Assembly: GCA_017510505.1 (NCBI GenBank)
Contig: JAFWNE010000023.1
Location: forward strand, 21,213-85,212
From: Mogibacterium sp.
GTDB taxonomy: Bacteria > Bacillota > Clostridia > Peptostreptococcales > Anaerovoracaceae
Direction: 5' to 3'
DNA: 64,000 nt
A program made the position numbers and the translations under genes. Under the pieces are notes generated by a model that was not told the origin of the DNA, did not search any database, and worked only from the letters and a program-made list of their open reading frames with translations. Of the stretch, positions 1,311 to 30,182 are shown piece by piece; position 1 is the first letter of the stretch, and every line of letters begins with the position of its first letter.

Positions 1311-1384
<74 letters not shown>

Positions 1385-1420
1385 TTATAGATGAGGGACT
1401 CGCTAGAGTCCCTCATTTCC

Positions 1421-1495
1421 TGGCTAGGGTAGTAGGATTCGAACCTACGAATGACGGAATCAGAATCCGTTGCCTTACCGCTTGGCTATACCCCA
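1421..1495 (-). tRNA. tRNA-Gln (CTG)
   Basis: The reverse complement is tggggtatagccaagcggtaaggcaacggattctgattccgtcattcgtaggttcgaatcctactaccctagcca. The anticodon stem is ACGGA/TCCGT and the loop is UUCUGAU. Confidence 0.8.
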
Positions 1496-1543
1496 TCAGC
1501 ATTGATATTGTAGCATATCGTTCAGTTGATTAAAAGAAGAAAT

Positions 1544-1620
1544 TGGGGTGGATGGTGGGATTCGAACCCACGAATACTGGAGCCACAACCCAGGGTCTTA
1601 ACCACTTGACGACACCCACC
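1544..1620 (-). tRNA. tRNA-His (GTG) with an encoded G-1
   Basis: The reverse complement is g-gtgggtgtcgtcaagtggttaagaccctgggttgtggctccag...ggttcgaatcccaccatccacccca. The anticodon loop is UUGUGGC. An extra 5' G sits opposite discriminator C, as is typical for His. Confidence 0.85.
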
Positions 1621-1639
1621 ACGGGTCTTTTAAAAAAAA

Positions 1640-1716
1640 TGGCGACCGGGAACGGGCTCGAACCGTCGACCTCCAGCGTGACAGGCTGGCATTCTAACCA
1701 GCTGAACTACCCGGCC
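1640..1716 (-). tRNA. tRNA-Asp (GTC)
   Basis: The reverse complement is ggccgggtagttcagctggttagaatgccagcctgtcacgctggaggtcgacggttcgagcccgttcccggtcgcca. The anticodon loop is CUGUCAC. Confidence 0.85.
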
Positions 1717-1722
1717 GCGTAA

Positions 1723-1798
1723 TGGTGGGACCAATAGGGCTCGAACCTATGACCCCCTGCTTGTAAGGCAGGTGCTCTCCCAGCTGAGCTATGATCCC
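1723..1798 (-). tRNA. tRNA-Val (TAC)
   Basis: The reverse complement is gggatcatagctcagctgggagagcacctgccttacaagcagggggtcataggttcgagccctattggtcccacca. The anticodon loop is CUUACAA. Confidence 0.85.
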
Positions 1799-1803
1799 AC
1801 ATC

Positions 1804-1880
1804 TGGTAGCGGCGACTGGACTTGAACCAGTGACCTTCCGGGTATGAACCGGACGCTCTAGCCAGCTAAGCTACGCCGCC
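1804..1880 (-). tRNA. tRNA with a CAT anticodon (elongator Met, or Ile via lysidine; the sequence alone does not distinguish them)
   Basis: The reverse complement is ggcggcgtagcttagctggctagagcgtccggttcatacccggaaggtcactggttcaagtccagtcgccgctacca. The anticodon loop is UUCAUAC. It lacks the three consecutive G-C pairs in the anticodon stem expected of an initiator tRNA. Confidence 0.75.
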
Positions 1881-4193: not shown

Positions 4194-5195
4194 ATGAAAG
4201 TTTTTACAAGAGACTACAGGATAACAGGCGAATACCACCCTCTTTGGGGAGATTATTTCGATGGCATGGAGCCATGCGTATTGGACATAGAGGCTACCGG
4301 CCTTGACCGCAGCAGATGCAAGGCCGTGCTCATCGGTCTTTTGATGCACACGGACAAGGGCGTCACTATCACACAGTTTCTTGCGGAGAACCATTATGAA
4401 GAAGATAAGGTACTGGACGCCGCGATGGACTATCTTGAGAAAAACAACGCGGGCTATCTGGTGACATACAACGGCTGTGCCTATGACGTCCCTTTCCTGA
4501 ATGCGAGGCTGGATGCCAACTTCATGGGCAGACACATCGGGATGTATCATTTTGACCTGTACAGGTTCCTCTGCAAGTGTACGGATATGAGAAAACGCGT
4601 TGAAAGGATGAGCCAGATGTCCATAGAAGACCACTACGGCATATTCTCAGACCGCAGAGACACCATCACAGGTCGCGAAAGCGTTGCTCTATTTGATCAG
4701 TACGCTCTGTCCGGCAACAGTACGGTAGAAAAGATAATACTGACTCATAACCGGGAAGACGTGCTGCACCTTCACAGGCTTATGTATCTCACGCTTGCTG
4801 AGGTGCCTGATATCCATCAGGCACTGGCCGTTTACGGCCTCCCTGCCGCGGGCGGCAGGCTCAGCGTCAGACATACGATAAAAAGAGCTGCTTCAGGCAA
4901 AAAAGCGGACCCAGTCCTGAAGATATCAGGCGAACAGATAAAGGATCCTGTATCCTGCGCGTATTTCCCTGACGGAAACAGTCCTGTAACAGCTGTATTC
5001 AATTCACAGAGCCGCTCATTCGAGATAGATGTGCCTGTAAACACTCATCCGGAATCGTTGTTCATGGACACATCTCTCCTTGGCGCTGACGCGTTCAGGG
5101 ATGATCCGGACTGTGTCAACAACTACCTGATACTCAACGCGCGTACAACGAATCTTGTCTCACGCTATCTTGCTGAAAAGTATTACGATATGTAA
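4194..5195 (+). CDS. RNase H-like / 3'-5' exonuclease-fold protein (YprB-like)
   Basis: 333 aa. It contains the DIEATGLD acidic motif near the N-terminus, with later YNG..YDVPFL and H...D motifs typical of DEDD-type exonuclease-like proteins. No clear ribosome-binding site is present. Confidence 0.55.
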   Translation: MKVFTRDYRITGEYHPLWGDYFDGMEPCVLDIEATGLDRSRCKAVLIGLLMHTDKGVTITQFLAENHYEEDKVLDAAMDYLEKNNAGYLVTYNGCAYDVPFLNARLDANFMGRHIGMYHFDLYRFLCKCTDMRKRVERMSQMSIEDHYGIFSDRRDTITGRESVALFDQYALSGNSTVEKIILTHNREDVLHLHRLMYLTLAEVPDIHQALAVYGLPAAGGRLSVRHTIKRAASGKKADPVLKISGEQIKDPVSCAYFPDGNSPVTAVFNSQSRSFEIDVPVNTHPESLFMDTSLLGADAFRDDPDCVNNYLILNARTTNLVSRYLAEKYYDM

Positions 5196-23953: not shown

Positions 23954-24051
23954 TGGCGGGAGTACGTGGGAATCGAACCCACCCGGGAGGCTTCTAACCC
24001 CCTGCAAACGGTTTTGAAGACCGCGAGGCACACCAGCACCTATCTACCCCC
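23954..24051 (-). tRNA. selC: tRNA-Sec (TCA)
   Basis: 98 nt. The reverse complement is gggggtagataggtgctggtgtgcctcgcggtcttcaaaaccgtttgcagggggttagaagcctcccgggtgggttcgattcccacgtactcccgcca. The anticodon loop is CUUCAAA, and it has a long variable arm and an extended acceptor stem. It lies directly upstream of selA. Confidence 0.88.
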
Positions 24052-25678: not shown

Positions 25679-26494
25679 TTATATATCTATCGCAAGGTCG
25701 ACGACCCTGGCGAATACATCCTTTGCCTTCATGGCAGCTTCTGTGACCTCTGCGCCTGAGAGCGGCTGGTCCAGAACTCCGGCAGCCATGTTGGTCATCA
25801 AAGAGATGCCGATTATCTCGCGTTTGGCATGATTGGCGATTATGGCCTCAGGAACTGTCGACATTCCGGCCGCGTCGCCTCCGATGGTCCTTGCATACCT
25901 TATTTCAGCCGGAGTCTCAAAGCTCGGGCCGCTGAACATGGTATATACGCCCTCGCGGAGCTTAATTCCTTCAGCTGCGGTCGCCTTCTTCAGCTTTTCC
26001 CTGAGATCCTTGTCATATGTATATGTCATGTCAGGGAATCTGACGCCGAAATCGTCCAGATTATCGCCTATAAGAGGGTTGCTTCCCGATAAATTGATAT
26101 GGTCGCTGATCAGCATCAGATCTCCGACGTTCCAGTCCTTATTGACGCAGCCAGCGGCATTGGTGATTATGAAGCGCTTTACGCCCAGCCCGACCAATAC
26201 TCTCGCGGGATACGCGGTTTTCTGCATGTCGCCGCTCTCATAGTAGTGGAAGCGGCCTGCCAGCATCACTATCTTCTTGCCCTTATATGTGCCAAAGACC
26301 AGCTGGCTTCTGTGGTCTGAGACCTTGCCGGACTGCATGTTCGGGATGTCGTTGTATGAGAAGATCACGGGATCGGACATCCTGTCCGCGAAATCGTTAA
26401 GGCCTGATCCGAGTATGATGCCTATCTCCGGATCCTTAACACCGTTCTCATTCAGAAATGCGACAGTCTCTTTTATCTTTTCCCTGAGTTCCAT
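25679..26494 (-). CDS. punA: Purine nucleoside phosphorylase (trimeric PNP family)
   Basis: 271 aa. It contains GIILGSGL, GRFHYYE, NAAG and GPSFETPAE...GADAVGMSTVPE-like motifs. Confidence 0.88.
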   Translation of the reverse strand: MELREKIKETVAFLNENGVKDPEIGIILGSGLNDFADRMSDPVIFSYNDIPNMQSGKVSDHRSQLVFGTYKGKKIVMLAGRFHYYESGDMQKTAYPARVLVGLGVKRFIITNAAGCVNKDWNVGDLMLISDHINLSGSNPLIGDNLDDFGVRFPDMTYTYDKDLREKLKKATAAEGIKLREGVYTMFSGPSFETPAEIRYARTIGGDAAGMSTVPEAIIANHAKREIIGISLMTNMAAGVLDQPLSGAEVTEAAMKAKDVFARVVDLAIDI

Positions 26495-26506
26495 GATGTA
26501 CCCCCG

Positions 26507-26941
26507 TCAGATAAGCTCCGAAATGAGCTTTCTCGCCTCGGATATGCTTATGCCCTGCTCTTTCGCGACACGGGCAAGGTCTTCATATTCGGCCTTGCTT
26601 CTTTTTACTCCGTATCCGCTGACTTCCTTGATCCTTACAGGTCCGTACGGAGTGTCCAGAGTCCTTTCGCTCCTTTCAAGGATATGCCTTTCAGATATGA
26701 GCTCGCGTATGCCTATCGTTGTAGTGTATTTGAAGATGAGCCCGATGAAACGCTCCTTCTCAGCCTCTTCATCGGCGCACATCACAGTCAGCAGAGTGGC
26801 AGGACGCCCCTTCTTCATCCCTATAGGGGCAAGAGTCACGTCCCTGGCTCCCTCTTCCATCAGCCTTTCAGCCGCGAAAGCAAGTTCCTCCGCCGTCATG
26901 TCATCAATATTGCATTCGAATTCGCAGATCCTGTCCTTCAT
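26507..26941 (-). CDS. Stand-alone LarC C-terminal-domain protein (DUF111 C-terminal / LarC2-like)
   Basis: 144 aa. It contains NIDDMTAEELAFAAERLMEEGARDV...MKKGRPATLLTV...TTIGIRE...V..PYG.VRIK, as in the C-terminal third of nickel-insertion protein LarC. No N-terminal LarC portion can exist upstream because the udk stop abuts its start codon. Confidence 0.6.
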   Translation of the reverse strand: MKDRICEFECNIDDMTAEELAFAAERLMEEGARDVTLAPIGMKKGRPATLLTVMCADEEAEKERFIGLIFKYTTTIGIRELISERHILERSERTLDTPYGPVRIKEVSGYGVKRSKAEYEDLARVAKEQGISISEARKLISELI

Positions 26942-27568
26942 TTATCCCTGCTGTTCTACCCTGGCCAGATGCGAGAGTATCTTGACCTTGATCACGTCGA
27001 ATACGACGTCATTCATGCCGCTGTTAAGTACTATGTCAGCCAGATACTTGGTCGGCTCCACGTAGATGTAGTGCATAGGCTTTACCGTAGTCAGATACTG
27101 CTGGGCGATGCCCTCCACATCTCTTCCGCGGTATTTTACGTCACGGATCACACGGCGGAGTATCCTCTCGTCAGCGTCCGCCTCGACGTATATCTTGATG
27201 TCCAGCAGATCTCTGAGTTCAGGATTCTGCAGGACCATTATGCCTTCAACGATGATGACCGGAGACGGATTGATCCTGACTGTCTCCTCGCTCCTGTTAT
27301 GGATGGTGTAGTCATACACCGGGCAGTCGACGGGTTCGCCGTTCCTGAGCTTTCTCAGATGTTCTATGAAGAGATCCGTCTCGAAAGCGTCAGGATGGTC
27401 ATAGTTGATCAGCTTGCGCTCTTCGAACGGGATATCATAGTGAGCCCTGTAGTAGTTGTCATAATAAATGACCGTCACTCTGTCGCCGAACTCATCCTTG
27501 ATACGGTTTGTGAAAGTCGATTTGCCGGAACCGGTTCCGCCGGCAACACCAATGATCAGACAATCCAT
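26942..27568 (-). CDS. udk: Uridine/cytidine kinase
   Basis: 208 aa. It has P-loop GVAGGTGSGKST, plus YDHPDAFE and IVEGI. Confidence 0.92.
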   Translation of the reverse strand: MDCLIIGVAGGTGSGKSTFTNRIKDEFGDRVTVIYYDNYYRAHYDIPFEERKLINYDHPDAFETDLFIEHLRKLRNGEPVDCPVYDYTIHNRSEETVRINPSPVIIVEGIMVLQNPELRDLLDIKIYVEADADERILRRVIRDVKYRGRDVEGIAQQYLTTVKPMHYIYVEPTKYLADIVLNSGMNDVVFDVIKVKILSHLARVEQQG

Positions 27569-27607
27569 TTTGCAGTCTCCTCCGATTTGTGCTCTAACTT
27601 ATTTATT

Positions 27608-28384
27608 TTATAATCCAAGTTCCTTAAGGTCAATATTGCGAAGCCTTGGGGTTTTATCTATTTCGACCTCTTCGTACAGACCGGCCAGAGCTGCTTTGAT
27701 TTCGCTTTCACGCATCAGCGCGTCAGCGTGCTGACCCTCCGCGATCTGCACGAGCGCGTCCTTTCCTCTCATCCTTACCCTGAAGTCACTGAAGCCCATG
27801 TCCTGCATGATGGCTTCGGCTTTTTCGGTAGTCAGGAGCTTATCCGATGTGATCTTTTCTCCGGTCCTGATACGTGTGGCAAGGCAGGCATAGGCAGGCT
27901 TGCTCCAGGTCGGGAGTCCGGCTTCCTTTGACAGCATTCTGATCTCCGTCTTGTTGAGTCCGCACTCCCTGAGAGGTGATCTTATGCCGAGCTCTTGCAG
28001 AGCCTTGGTTCCCGGCCTGTCAGTAGCGTCATCAGACGCGTTGGTCCCGTCGCAGACCATTTCATAGCCATCCGCCGAAGCTGCGGCTTTTACCGCAGTC
28101 ATTATCCGGGTCTTGCAATAGTAGCAGCGGTCAGCCGGATTCGCGGTGACCTTCTCATCCGACAAAACGTCGACCTCTATCACTTCAAACTCTGCGCCTA
28201 TCTGCTCAGCCAGTTTCCGCGCGTCTTCAAACTCAAATCCGGGCTGGAATGCCGATCTGACGCAATAGGCCTTGACATCCGCTCCCGCCCTGACTGCCGC
28301 ATAAAGCAGATATGCCGAATCGACACCCCCTGAGAAAGCGACCGCTATTCTTTTGTTCTCCTCAAAGAATCCATCAAGTTTCAT
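27608..28384 (-). CDS. larE: LarE-like PP-loop ATP pyrophosphatase / sulfur transferase (three-cysteine type)
   Basis: 258 aa. It has the PP-loop AFSGGVDSAYL, the ACLATR cysteine motif, and an additional CYYC pair (DRCYYCKTRI). Confidence 0.75.
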   Translation of the reverse strand: MKLDGFFEENKRIAVAFSGGVDSAYLLYAAVRAGADVKAYCVRSAFQPGFEFEDARKLAEQIGAEFEVIEVDVLSDEKVTANPADRCYYCKTRIMTAVKAAASADGYEMVCDGTNASDDATDRPGTKALQELGIRSPLRECGLNKTEIRMLSKEAGLPTWSKPAYACLATRIRTGEKITSDKLLTTEKAEAIMQDMGFSDFRVRMRGKDALVQIAEGQHADALMRESEIKAALAGLYEEVEIDKTPRLRNIDLKELGL

Positions 28385-28389
28385 TATTA

Positions 28390-28551
28390 TTACTCAAGCG
28401 ATTCACTGATGTAATACGCATTCACGCGGCCTTCGGTTATGAGGACTGATTCCTGGTGGAAGAACACACAAAGGTCCTTAGCAATCTCCTCCACGACCGG
28501 TTTTTTCTCAACGGAATCATTCATTCCCACGTATATTTTTGTTTCGACCAT
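28390..28551 (-). CDS. Small hypothetical protein (53 aa) heading the larE operon; below the ORF-track size cutoff
   Basis: My translation is MVETKIYVGMNDSVEKKPVVEEIAKDLCVFFHQESVLITEGRVNAYYISESLE. A strong ribosome-binding site (caggagacagcggaaATG) is present, and the stop lies 5 nt before the larE ATG. Confidence 0.45.
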   Translation of the reverse strand: MVETKIYVGMNDSVEKKPVVEEIAKDLCVFFHQESVLITEGRVNAYYISESLE

Positions 28552-28724
28552 TTCCGCTGTCTCCTGTTCAGTCTTAGCCTATTTCACCAAATATTATGAT
28601 ACCACACATAAGTTGTTTTGTGCCGCTGTCACAGATTATCGTTTTAGGCATTTATTGTTAACCTGAACAAAAAAGTGGGTTTCATTTTGTTTTTTTTAAA
28701 TACATTTATATTGCTGAAAAAACA

Positions 28725-28753
28725 TTGCAATCGTGTTTTTAAATCAGTACAAT
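28725..28753 (+). promoter_or_regulatory. Near-consensus SigA-type promoter: TTGCAA, 17 nt spacer, TACAAT
   Basis: The sequence reads TTGCAAtcgtgtttttaaatcagTACAAT and is preceded by an A/T-rich tract. No plus-strand protein gene follows it. Confidence 0.55.
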
Positions 28754-28759
28754 CAAGAC

Positions 28760-29127
28760 AAGAAGAAGGGACGTAATAGCCGGACGGAAAAGAAACCAAG
28801 GAAAGACTTTATAAATCGGAAGTCGACGAAGTGATCCGGCAAACTACAAAAGCGCGGGACGCGCAGAAACGGAGGAGCAGACCAATGGGTGCAATTTATA
28901 AGGAGGCTGTTCCGGTATAAATCCTCTGCAAGGCATGCCTACTTAGTGGCAACCGGGAGTGAAAGAAGCCGGACACAAAAGATCTAATCAGCAGATGCGA
29001 TCACGGGGCAGCCTCAGAAACACAAACAAGACAAAACAAAATAAGCCGTATTGCAGACATGTACGGCAAACAACTGAATATCAGGAAGTAACGAGGGACG
29101 GGCAAAGCCCGTCCCCTTATTGTTGTT
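28760..29127 (+). ncRNA. Candidate stand-alone non-coding RNA of about 370 nt, purine-rich, class unknown
   Basis: It is bounded by the promoter above and by a terminator whose U-tract is on the plus strand. All frames are closed except an 11-codon micro-ORF (28885-28920, MGAIYKEAVPV, with a GGAGGA site upstream). An internal repeat AGCCGGAC-NN-AAAAGA occurs at 28778 and 28967. Several local hairpins are present (gcgcg-gga-cgcgc, gccgta...tacggc, gccgga...tccggc). Confidence 0.35.
29095..29127 (+). terminator. Intrinsic terminator oriented for plus-strand transcription (convergent with asd)
   Basis: gggacggg-caaag-cccgtccc is followed by cttattgttgtt on the plus strand. The minus-strand tail (tcgttacttcc) is a poor U-tract. 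Confidence 0.6.
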
Positions 29128-29144: not shown

Positions 29145-30182
29145 CTACTCCTTGATCAGAAGTTCTGCGATCTGAACAGCGTTTGTGGCTGCTCCCTTTC
29201 TTACCTGGTCGCCGCAGCACCAGAGATTGATGCCGTTCTCGTTAACGAGGTCGCGGCGGATCCTGCCGACATATACGATGTCCTGATTCGATGTCAGTAT
29301 AGGCATCGGATAGATCTTATCGTTCGGTTCATCGTAAAGCCTGCATCCCTGAGCCTGCTCAACAGCCGCTCTTACTTCTGAGAGCTCGAGTCTCTTCTCT
29401 GTGATCACATCGATCGATACCGCATGCGATCTCTCTACCGGCACTCTTACGCATGTGCAGCTGACCTTGAGTTCAGGCAGGTGCATGATCTTGCGGCCCT
29501 CGTTCTGCAGTTTCATCTCCTCGGATGAATACAGGTTCTCGCCGAATCCGCCGATCTGCGGGATAACGTTGTAAGCGATCTGATACTGGAATACCTTCGG
29601 ATCGATGTCCGCGCCGTATGAATTGCCCTCGCCGCCCGCGGCTCTTGCCTTCAGGATGGCTTCAGACTGATCATACATCTCTACAGGACCTGCAGCGCCT
29701 GCGCCGCTCGTTGCCTGATACGACGATGCGTACATGGCCTCTATCTTAGACAGCTGGTTGATAGCATTTACCGCAACCAGTGAGATGATAGTGGTGCAGT
29801 TAGGATTGCTGATTATTCCGTTGTTCCACTCCACGTCCTCAGGGTTTATTTCAGGCACTACCAGCGGAACATCTTCACACAGCCTGAAAGCCGAAGAATT
29901 GTCCACGAAGACCGCGCCGGATGCCTTGATATGAGGAGCCATGGCCTCGGCGATGTCGTTCTCGGAAGCTCCGAGCACTATGTCGAGTCCTTCGAAAGCC
30001 GTCTCGCATGTCCTTTGGATCACTACATCGCCAAACGGCGTGCTCAGGGTCTTGCCCTCCGACCTTTCGCTTGCCAGGCATCTGAGTTCTCCCACAGGGA
30101 AGTTCCTCTCGCCCAGCACCTTTATCATCTGCTGTCCGACCGCTCCGGTCGCGCCCATTACTCCAACATTGTACTTTTTCAT
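29145..30182 (-). CDS. asd: Aspartate-semialdehyde dehydrogenase
   Basis: 345 aa. It contains GATGAVG, the active site NPNCTTI, and SYQATSGAG. Confidence 0.93.
   Translation of the reverse strand: MKKYNVGVMGATGAVGQQMIKVLGERNFPVGELRCLASERSEGKTLSTPFGDVVIQRTCETAFEGLDIVLGASENDIAEAMAPHIKASGAVFVDNSSAFRLCEDVPLVVPEINPEDVEWNNGIISNPNCTTIISLVAVNAINQLSKIEAMYASSYQATSGAGAAGPVEMYDQSEAILKARAAGGEGNSYGADIDPKVFQYQIAYNVIPQIGGFGENLYSSEEMKLQNEGRKIMHLPELKVSCTCVRVPVERSHAVSIDVITEKRLELSEVRAAVEQAQGCRLYDEPNDKIYPMPILTSNQDIVYVGRIRRDLVNENGINLWCCGDQVRKGAATNAVQIAELLIKE

Follow-up and report, generated by a model that had tools for sequence, protein, structure and literature searches.

A very abundant structured RNA of rumen Anaerovoracaceae that very probably represents a new non-coding RNA family

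Introduction

Highly structured and extremely abundant orphan RNAs are few. The chief examples are OLE, raiA, ROOL and GOLLD, and each of them opened new biology or structural work. Here we describe an RNA gene located between a LarE-type operon and asd in a 64,000-nucleotide (nt) stretch of DNA from Mogibacterium sp. (contig JAFWNE010000023.1), hereafter called the window. An earlier note on this DNA had proposed a stand-alone plus-strand non-coding transcript with its own promoter and terminator at this site, and metatranscriptome contigs that cover the unit, with flanks at zero depth, bear this out. The RNA very probably is a genuine new non-coding RNA family. With less certainty, we favor the view that the unit is the gene of a structured non-coding RNA not described before, which is lineage-restricted, is expressed at a very high level and acts independently in trans. 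Homologous loci, lineages and sequencing runs are denoted below by L numbers, letters (A-I) and X numbers, respectively.

The raiA RNA is abundant and trans-acting, with no function known, and its exposed, conserved single-stranded stretch is the proposed site for the KhpA/KhpB proteins (PMC12968392). An ordinary raiA RNA of 163 nt is present in M. pumilum, a cultured relative (PMC12968392). The RNA described here resembles raiA (RF03072) in being a stand-alone, very abundant and compactly folded RNA of Bacillota with variable peripheral stems and a conserved single-stranded stretch. It differs in carrying a mini open reading frame (ORF) with Shine-Dalgarno (SD) sequence and AUG, which raiA lacks, and in its occurrence in one narrow clade as compared to more than 2,700 species. 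RF03072 gave no match at the gathering score, nor did it match the window, L116 or L009 when E was relaxed to 10, and the raiA linker UUAGA(C/A)GUAA is absent from the RNA even with one mismatch allowed. Assignment to raiA was rejected on architecture as well: the conserved, covarying helix P1 is internal, with 140 and 110 nt outside it, and the conserved helices include none that joins the two ends. A pairing of about 10 bp between the ends does appear in the minimum free energy (MFE) fold of the single window sequence, but the 5' domain varies among homologues and is missing from L017 and L139.

In OLE RNA, a mimic of the SD/anti-SD interaction binds ribosomal protein bS21 (PMC12054373). Like OLE, our RNA is a large and abundant orphan RNA of anaerobic Bacillota with a look-alike of a ribosome-binding site. 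Its size of 280-665 nt differs from the approximately 600 nt of OLE, RF01071 did not match, and at this locus the neighbors are a LarE-type operon and asd, not oapA, oapB or oapC. There is also a likeness to tmRNA, i.e., abundance, a length of about 350 nt, a structure of the pseudoknot type and, inside the RNA, a frame of some 10 codons that stops at a helix. Unlike tmRNA, the RNA has no tRNA-like domain, its peptide has no degradation-tag character, and its frame is preceded by an SD and opens with an AUG, both of which are missing from tmRNA.

Results

A discrete and very abundant transcript

Transcription was examined by mapping Logan contigs from eight rumen metatranscriptome runs, belonging to several studies, onto the window. 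Between positions 27500 and 30500 the RNA unit was the sole assembled piece. Its depth reached 655, whereas larE and asd had depth 0, barring a 30-nt conserved asd word. Contigs started at 28761, 28770, 28774, 28779 or 28783 and ended at 29084, 29087 or 29088; the earliest start, in run X25, lies 8 nt past the -10 box. Loss of 10-20 nt at the 5' side and a stop before a G+C hairpin are usual for random-primed cDNA. In runs X26, X28 and X31, Illumina adapters were found directly at the contig ends, indicating that many fragments truly terminate there. In line with its origin from a rumen or gut bacterium, DNA words of the window also turned up in gut metagenomes (bovine, sheep and others) and in numerous metatranscriptomes from the rumen.

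Homologues gave the same picture. One RNA contig of the L004 homologue spans the entire terminator hairpin, and L004-type RNA assembles even from runs of just 3-10 million letters. L009-type RNA, with contigs of 525-600 nt, reached a depth of 17,946 in one metatranscriptome as compared to 5.3 for asd, which is about 3,400-fold higher. The product is a discrete RNA of 310-365 nt whose level exceeds that of the neighboring mRNAs by orders of magnitude.

Two deviating 3' ends were seen in homologues. In run X53, an RNA contig of L004 carries 36 extra A-rich letters past the terminator (near L004 position 5102; AAAAAAAAAAAUAAGAAGAAGAAGAAAGAA in RNA sense); either a poly(A)-like tail or a chimeric contig could account for them. 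An L009-type variant (L159 1800-1995; L009 5129-5151) has three ATCTGTAGGA repeats replacing the terminator, and the very deep RNA contig of run X83 extends into this terminator-less variant.

Promoter, terminator and composition

The near-consensus promoter TTGCAA-17-TACAAT and the GC-rich hairpin with its U-tract on the plus strand, both pointed out in the earlier note, were recovered by motif scans (Table 1). Taken alone such matches are at chance level (2 promoter-like sites versus 1.7 expected and 3 terminator-like sites versus 1.0 expected in shuffled sequence), so their reality rests on comparative and expression evidence. Both elements are conserved in position in homologues of other species (about nine lineages). 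The promoter, preceded in the window by an A/T-rich block, recurs as TTGCA/TTGTA-17-TACAAT at equal distance from the RNA start in L001, L004-7, L017, L139, L179, L184 and L115. The terminator hairpin, GGGACGGGC-AAA-GCCCGTCCC followed by CTTATTGTTGTT on the plus strand, is retained with compensatory variants in L017, L139, L115, L009 and L116. Transcription would start from the sigma-70-type promoter at about 28761 and be ended by the intrinsic terminator at about 29125.

The unit is as A/G-rich as first described (64% purine, A 37%, T 15%, AT skew +0.35 to +0.43). A credible ORF had not been seen either, and indeed no plus-strand ORF longer than 33 amino acids (aa) lies inside the unit, except a GTG ORF that runs antisense into asd. 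Compared to shuffled sequences, the fold z-score is -3.5 on the plus strand and -2.6 on the minus strand.

Table 1. Features of the RNA gene and its immediate flanks, in window coordinates.
Feature	Position	Strand	Remarks
larE (PP-loop ATPase, LarE-like)	27608-28384	-	Pfam
53-aa ORF	28390-28551	-	no Pfam match
Promoter, sigma-70-type	-35 TTGCAA 28725-28730; -10 TACAAT 28748-28753	+	17-nt spacer; motif scan
Primary transcript	28761-29125	+	about 365 nt; start (~28761) and end (U-tract) inferred
Variable 5' domain	28779-28842	+	64 nt; MFE fold, homologue comparison
P0 hairpin	28852-28864	+	GCGCG-GGA-CGCGC
J01, near-invariant, single-stranded	28865-28902	+	AGAA, GGAGGA 28871-28876, CAGACCA, AUG 28885-28887, GGNNCAUUU
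Mini-ORF	28885-28920	+	MGAIYKEAVPV + TAA; 11 codons; codons 7-11 are the P1 5' strand
P1, 5' strand	28903-28915	+	13 bp with 29003-29015; closes junction holding P2, P3 and P4
P2, 5' strand	28926-28929	+	CUGC, pairs with GCAG 28991-28994; then invariant AAGGC
P3 hairpin	28937-28950	+	GCC-UACUUAGU-GGC; loop core (G/U)(A/G)CUUA almost invariant
P4 hairpin	28953-28972	+	CCGG-GAGUGAAAGAAG-CCGG; absent in L009, L116
Candidate pseudoknot	28959-28976	+	P4-loop GUG 28959-28961 with CAC 28974-28976; mostly GGUG/CACC elsewhere
P2 3' strand, J21, P1 3' strand	28991-29015	+	P2 28991-28994; P1 29003-29015
A-rich linker	29016-29044	+	variable sequence and length
3' hairpin	29045-29067	+	GCCGUA...UACGGC
Conserved 3' segment	29068-29094	+	ACAACnGAAUA-ucAGGAAGUAAC; kept in most lineages; RNA-seq contigs end inside (29084-29088)
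Intrinsic terminator	29095-29127	+	9-bp G+C hairpin 29095-29115, then CUUAUUGUUGUU; motif scan
asd	29145-30182	-	Pfam; convergent to RNA gene

Homologues in a narrow clade

Using the Asd protein, 80 loci were retrieved from species-representative genomes. The closest came from metagenome-assembled genomes (MAGs) labeled Mogibacterium, Anaerovoracaceae or 'uncultured Clostridiales RUG', obtained from cattle, sheep, goat and horse. With nhmmer, the RNA was found on the downstream side of asd, in convergent orientation, in L001, L004-7, L009, L013 and L017, and in L070 at another place, inverted relative to its neighbors and 2 kb from asd. It was not at the asd-downstream site of the fetched loci L002, L003, L010-12, L014-16 and M. 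pumilum. A motif scan of metagenome contigs gave 112 matches, of which 14 are genuine homologues and most, from soil and sediment, arose by chance. The total is 23 homologous loci with 21 distinct sequences in about nine lineages (A-I), all from Anaerovoracaceae- or 'Mogibacterium'-labeled MAGs or from metagenome contigs. The RNA thus appears confined to a narrow clade of uncultured rumen and gut Anaerovoracaceae, a restriction that may partly reflect limited scans.

No blastn match to the RNA was found among 50,697 phage and 72,556 plasmid records, and a mobile-element origin was rejected; a pattern match on the viral contig L081 lies inside a coding region and is due to chance.

A conserved core with variable periphery

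The 'several local helices' of the earlier note exist and resolve into a defined core plus variable arms. Comparison of the homologues shows a predicted conserved core that consists of P0, an invariant unpaired stretch (J01) and a P1-closed junction with P2, P3 and P4. Around this core lie a 5' domain of freely varying size, the A-rich linker, a variable hairpin and the terminator. Changes on both sides of helices were found well beyond close strains when the asd-downstream regions of relatives were compared, as the earlier note had recommended.

Pair counts were made on a hand-curated alignment of 21 sequences and a model-made alignment of 23 sequences. Standard pairs fill 87.5% of the paired cells in the former and 93.1% in the latter, and sliding the partners by 1-3 columns reduces this to 16-42% and 21-43%, respectively. 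Eight pairs (hand-curated) and nine pairs (model-made) are changed on both sides. None of 500 shuffles matched the observed paired cells and covariation score in the hand-curated alignment, and none of 500 matched the observed values in the model-made one. An independent check was provided by covariance model R1, which contains lineages A-F only: it recovered three held-out lineages with scores of 71-75, 72 and 38-41 bits (E 1e-8 to 1e-18), and no other match turned up in the window or across the approximately 1.3 Mb of retrieved loci. RNAalifold on a raw MAFFT alignment recovered P1, P2 and P3 only. P4 was missed because indels misaligned it, and the hand-curated and model-made alignments were used instead; P0 was left out of the formal pair count because its region had been displaced by MAFFT in the N-padded alignment.

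The helices differ in how they are supported. In P1, 89% of cells are paired and five of 13 pairs are changed on both sides; in L116, GGTTATCCTG/CAGGATAACC replaces GGCTGTTCCG/CGGGGCAGCC (also given as GGUUAUCCUG/CAGGAUAACC as compared to GGCUGUUCCG/CGGGGCAGCC in the window). P4 changes from CCGG/CCGG to CCCG/CGGG, with three of four pairs changed on both sides. By this comparison, P1 and P4 are well-supported predictions. P2 (consensus CUGY/RCAG) has 99% of its cells paired, with mostly wobble changes and a possible alternative register in two lineages. The stem of P3 never varies and is thereby neither supported nor refuted, and its loop has the consensus kRCUUAnn across lineages. For the putative P4-loop pseudoknot, the three core pairs are invariant and 68% of cells pair; the weak support comes from extensions in three lineages, i.e., C-G in L017, U-A at both ends in L070, and C-G in L013, L115 and L184. 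P0 shows the compensatory change GCGCG/CGCGC to GCGTC/GACGC in L013, L115 and L184, is shorter in L007, L009 and L116, and is missing from L017.

The best evidence for the strand comes from U-G and G-U pairs conserved within P1, since these would read A-C on the opposite one. Together with the orientation of promoter and terminator and the suggestive adapter orientation of run X28, they support the plus strand.

Outside the core, the first transcribed bases AGACAAG/AGACAAC are kept across lineages, less exactly in three. In the window, the 5' domain has a closing stem GCCGGA/UCCGGC around an inner hairpin at 28805-28824. Its size ranges from 0 in L017 and L139 to about 400 nt in L009. The L009 expansion contains seven AAGUAC(A/C) repeats, some followed by GGA, e.g., GUACCAGGAUGG. 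L009 (5152-5790, minus strand) encodes an RNA of 525-665 nt, with the 5' domain enlarged by about 300-400 nt. The 3' hairpin changes in compensatory fashion to GCUGUA...UACAGC in L004-6, L136 and L148, and is swapped for other hairpins in L013, L017 and L070. The conserved 3' segment reads ACAACnGAAUA..AGGAAGUAAC across lineages, with the terminator next; its ACAAC..AAUA is able to pair with UAUUGUUGU past the terminator. The window MFE fold, from a single sequence, pairs the extreme ends over about 10 bp.

A duplicated AGCCGGAC-NN-AAAAGA element had also been noted. Both copies are present (28778-28793 and 28967-28982), whereas conservation is not: L001 already differs, lineage B has AACGGGACACCAAATC at the second site, and the copies lie in different helices. 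On sequence comparison we regard the duplication as a coincidence of the window's own lineage.

An SD-AUG mini-ORF fused to helix P1

The 11-codon micro-ORF with a GGAGGA site, reported from the window sequence, was found again, and its layout is conserved in 21 of 21 distinct homologues. In all of these the AUG is invariant, with an SD 8 nt upstream that is of the GGAGG type (GAGAGG in one lineage), and a frame of 10 or 11 codons ends at a UAA or UAG stop in the junction right after the P1 5' strand. The G-G core of P1 begins at +20/21 from the AUG in all. J01 has the consensus AGAA-nn-GGAGGA-CAGACCA-AUG-GGNNCAUUU, and the MFE fold leaves it without pairs or with weak ones. Its stretch of 13 nt that leads from the SD spacer into codon 2 (ACAGACCAAUGGGA) never varies.

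The peptide is less constant. Codons 3-6 vary at all three positions. Two lineages have a 1-nt deletion before P1 (UAUAR to UARCA) with the stop still in frame, and they read the last four codons in another frame (GAVPL versus GLFR/GLFH). Since the peptide is not conserved, it is unlikely to be the product.

The SD-like strand of OLE pairs with an anti-SD in cis, whereas the SD here is predicted to be unpaired, with a real AUG and frame next to it. An anti-SD-like UCCUCU occurs in lineage A only (window, L001, L188), at 28922-28927 of the junction that follows P1. Being complementary to GGAGGA at 28871-28876, it would allow a cis SD/anti-SD pairing in this lineage.

Alternative explanations

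Best placed among the alternatives, at a low probability, is local action on the convergent asd/aspartokinase/homoserine dehydrogenase operon, by transcription collision, read-through antisense RNA or a shared two-way terminator. The gene faces asd (lineages A, B, D, E, F and H, and L013) or hom (L184, L188) in most lineages, and a low-depth contig of run X25 reads from 28761 through the terminator to 29262, antisense into asd. However, the abundant species ends at or before the terminator without overlapping asd, and neither the complex conserved core nor a roughly 3,400-fold excess over asd is necessary for interference. Furthermore, the inverted gene of L070 is 2 kb away from asd, L100 and L116 have different neighbors (the L116 contig ends shortly past the RNA), and adjacency can be explained as inherited synteny within one family.

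The neighborhood showed some further variation. In L139 (5724-6222) the RNA gene is flanked by asd and aspartokinase and runs on the opposite strand, and in L188 and L184 the convergent neighbor is homoserine dehydrogenase, not asd; the RNA keeps an aspartate-pathway neighbor though the partner gene switches. L010 (5040-5418) has four tandem units of about 62 bp right after asd, at the site of the RNA gene elsewhere, each with an internal inverted repeat TTAGTTAG...CTAACTAA.

Slightly less probable still, and very unlikely in our view, is a small-ORF messenger in which the 10-11-residue peptide is the product and the fold merely stabilizes the mRNA. The strong SD, the AUG, the constant length and the in-frame TAA or TAG of all 21 sequences would suit it, and the frame meets the formal definition of an 'sORF candidate' (PMC11109978). 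The unconserved peptide argues against it, as does nucleotide conservation that tracks helices and loops and not codons; the ORF leaves out about 90% of the RNA, and this remainder is conserved in structure.

A sponge of the CsrB/RsmZ type, titrating a GGA- or single-strand-binding regulator, is highly improbable. Like CsrB/RsmZ, the RNA is abundant, purine- and GGA-containing, terminator-ended and, in our reading, trans-acting; GGA occurs in a conserved AGGAAGU just before the terminator, and after some of the L009 AAGUAC(A/C) repeats mentioned above. Unlike CsrB/RsmZ, it has no array of similar GGA hairpins, and the conserved part is a single complex junction. The GGA count is 13 versus 9.9±2.2 in dinucleotide-preserving shuffles for the window and 19 versus 17.8±2.7 for L009, and eight homologues are similar. 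Since GGA is not enriched, a CsrB-like sponge is unsupported. The sole PrrB_RsmZ match in Rfam, at 10 bits, lies on the terminator, and tblastn with CsrA, FliW, Hfq and SmpB gave no match in the 64-kb window, a check that is uninformative.

That the RNA is a very divergent 6S, tmRNA, SRP, RNase P, raiA or OLE RNA that escapes the Rfam models can be given almost no weight. Abundance is typical of such RNAs and there are short word matches, e.g., GAAGUAA to the raiA linker. Yet Rfam 15 at the gathering score found only eight tRNAs in the whole window, and relaxing E to 10 for the window region as well as for L116 and L009 gave noise only (terminators and the upstream A/T block). SRP and RNase P models did not match these three sequences, and ARAGORN detected no tmRNA in the window. 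Rfam was negative in three divergent members for the families (tmRNA, RNase P, SRP, 6S, T-box leaders, common riboswitches) that the earlier note could not match. The purine-rich ends lie outside P1, and a 6S-like rod or tRNA-like domain is missing; 6S RNA was rejected because it had no Rfam match and because what is conserved is an internal junction, without a conserved rod or central bubble. Such an RNA is not mentioned in the 224-motif and 50-genome surveys or in the papers found on non-coding RNA of Mogibacterium and the rumen. The earlier note had named a missing transcript, conservation limited to close strains and a clear Rfam match as counting against its proposal; each was looked for and none was observed.

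Some motif look-alikes were considered by eye. The 3' hairpin (AGCCGUAU...GUACGGC) resembles domain 5 of group II introns, and was dismissed as it is not conserved and had no Rfam match. Look-alikes of the 11-nt receptor, the anticodon loop and the K-turn were dropped for want of conservation or fit.

Lastly, a cis-regulatory leader (riboswitch, or upstream-ORF attenuator with the terminator as expression platform) has the expected layout of SD-AUG-ORF, structure and intrinsic terminator, and in L070 a co-oriented purine nucleoside phosphorylase gene follows the RNA, but this reading is close to refuted because in every other lineage with downstream flank the next gene is not co-oriented (convergent for asd and hom), the ORF has no run of regulatory codons, and the terminated RNA itself is the abundant, stable product.

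Other features of the window

The LarE-type operon upstream (25679-28384, minus strand) encodes a LarE-like PP-loop ATPase, a uridine kinase, a 144-aa ORF and a purine nucleoside phosphorylase. The 144-aa ORF matches just the C-terminal third of LarC (Ni_insertion 242-373 of 375). The window operon lacks LarB and full LarC, whereas L115 and L184 have larE-larB-larC. A promoter of its own near 28600, expected by the earlier note, is consistent with a minus-strand promoter-like extended -10 (TGGTATCAT, 28596-28606). About 20 nt upstream of it lies a CRP/FNR-type palindrome (TGTGCCGCTGTCACA, 28619-28633), conserved in L001 as TGTGATGCTGTCACA. From its sequence and position, this palindrome may be the operator of a LarR-like regulator of the Crp/Fnr family and would belong to the divergent operon and not to the RNA. 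The near-identical strain L188 has a 121-aa version of the 53-aa ORF (4604-4969) with a weak DUF3574 match, so the window ORF looks like a truncated remnant. Elsewhere, the window contains a selenocysteine tRNA gene (23954-24051, minus strand) and a cluster of six tRNAs (Cys, Gln, His, Asp, Val, Met; 1311-1880, minus strand).

Discussion

The discrete transcript, its homologues and the covarying core argue strongly for a new family. How the RNA acts is less certain, and we regard the chance that it acts mainly in trans as about even. As for other abundant RNAs that combine a conserved core with variable arms, trans action would take place within a ribonucleoprotein particle (RNP), and by analogy with abundant RNP RNAs the invariant loops and junctions would be sites for a partner. 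A search for trans targets gave 21 RNA 11-13-mers complementary to either window strand, a number of the same order as the rough expectation of about 11 and so at chance level; none of these lies in an invariant segment.

The partner could perhaps be the translation machinery, given the SD, the AUG and the 10-11-codon frame that merges into the P1 5' strand. P1 begins about +19 to +21 from the AUG, which is roughly where the mRNA channel has its edge, so a 30S or 70S ribosome could dock without melting the core. A docked 30S or 70S would be unable to advance unless the core unfolds. In SD-type 5' stabilizers and leader-peptide attenuators of Gram-positive bacteria, such as cryIIIA STAB-SD and the ermC leader, a ribosome bound at a strong SD, with or without a short ORF, alters the fate of the RNA. 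The present RNA shares with these a strong SD and has a short ORF with no useful peptide. It differs in that no gene follows, whereas those elements precede the gene they stabilize or regulate, and that the SD is located 30-500 nt from the 5' end. Docking might shield the RNA from 5' decay, as in the SD-type '5' stabilizers' of Bacillus, or serve to hold or sense ribosomes, and the peptide itself would not be the product. We consider it rather doubtful that ribosome docking belongs to the function of the RNA. More speculative again, and improbable, is that the RNA defines a new ribosome-engaging class, in which a 30S or 70S loaded at the mini-frame would run up against the 13-bp helix of a pseudoknotted junction, a ribosome trap or translation-status sensor that acts as a global regulator of translation or growth state in rumen Anaerovoracaceae; the variable 5' expansions would then tune load or partners.

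Several points weigh against our favored reading. Neither trans action nor the partner nor ribosome docking goes beyond inference. An aspartate-pathway gene adjoins the RNA in most lineages, which makes a local role conceivable. A very abundant translated minigene would be costly for the cell. The invariance of ACAGACCAAUGGGA exceeds what initiation needs, so the 'SD-AUG' may, instead or in addition, serve as a tertiary or protein-binding motif. The preservation of the in-frame stop after the deletion is probably one event, as UARCAA is common to lineages F and G, and says little. Both alignments were fitted to the structure, by which the pairing figures are somewhat inflated. Finally, the strand cannot be read from the contigs, and for run X28 the orientation of the adapters is no more than suggestive.

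The RNA is best filed as a new family within a loosely defined kind, the abundant orphan structured non-coding RNAs of Bacillota; it is not a member of the OLE, raiA, ROOL or GOLLD families. The family is backed by expression data of many independent studies and by covariation, and an unusual twist is the conserved ribosome-binding site and mini-frame fused to a core helix. In view of the very high depth (17,946 in one run), the RNA may be an unannotated contaminant of expression analyses. Its host bacteria are uncultured yet common in the rumen, and the RNA is a handy marker for this clade of rumen Anaerovoracaceae. The invariant look-alike of a ribosome-binding site on the core helix offers a concrete and cheaply testable hypothesis, and would add a case to the emerging theme that large non-coding RNAs of Bacillota interact with the translation machinery.

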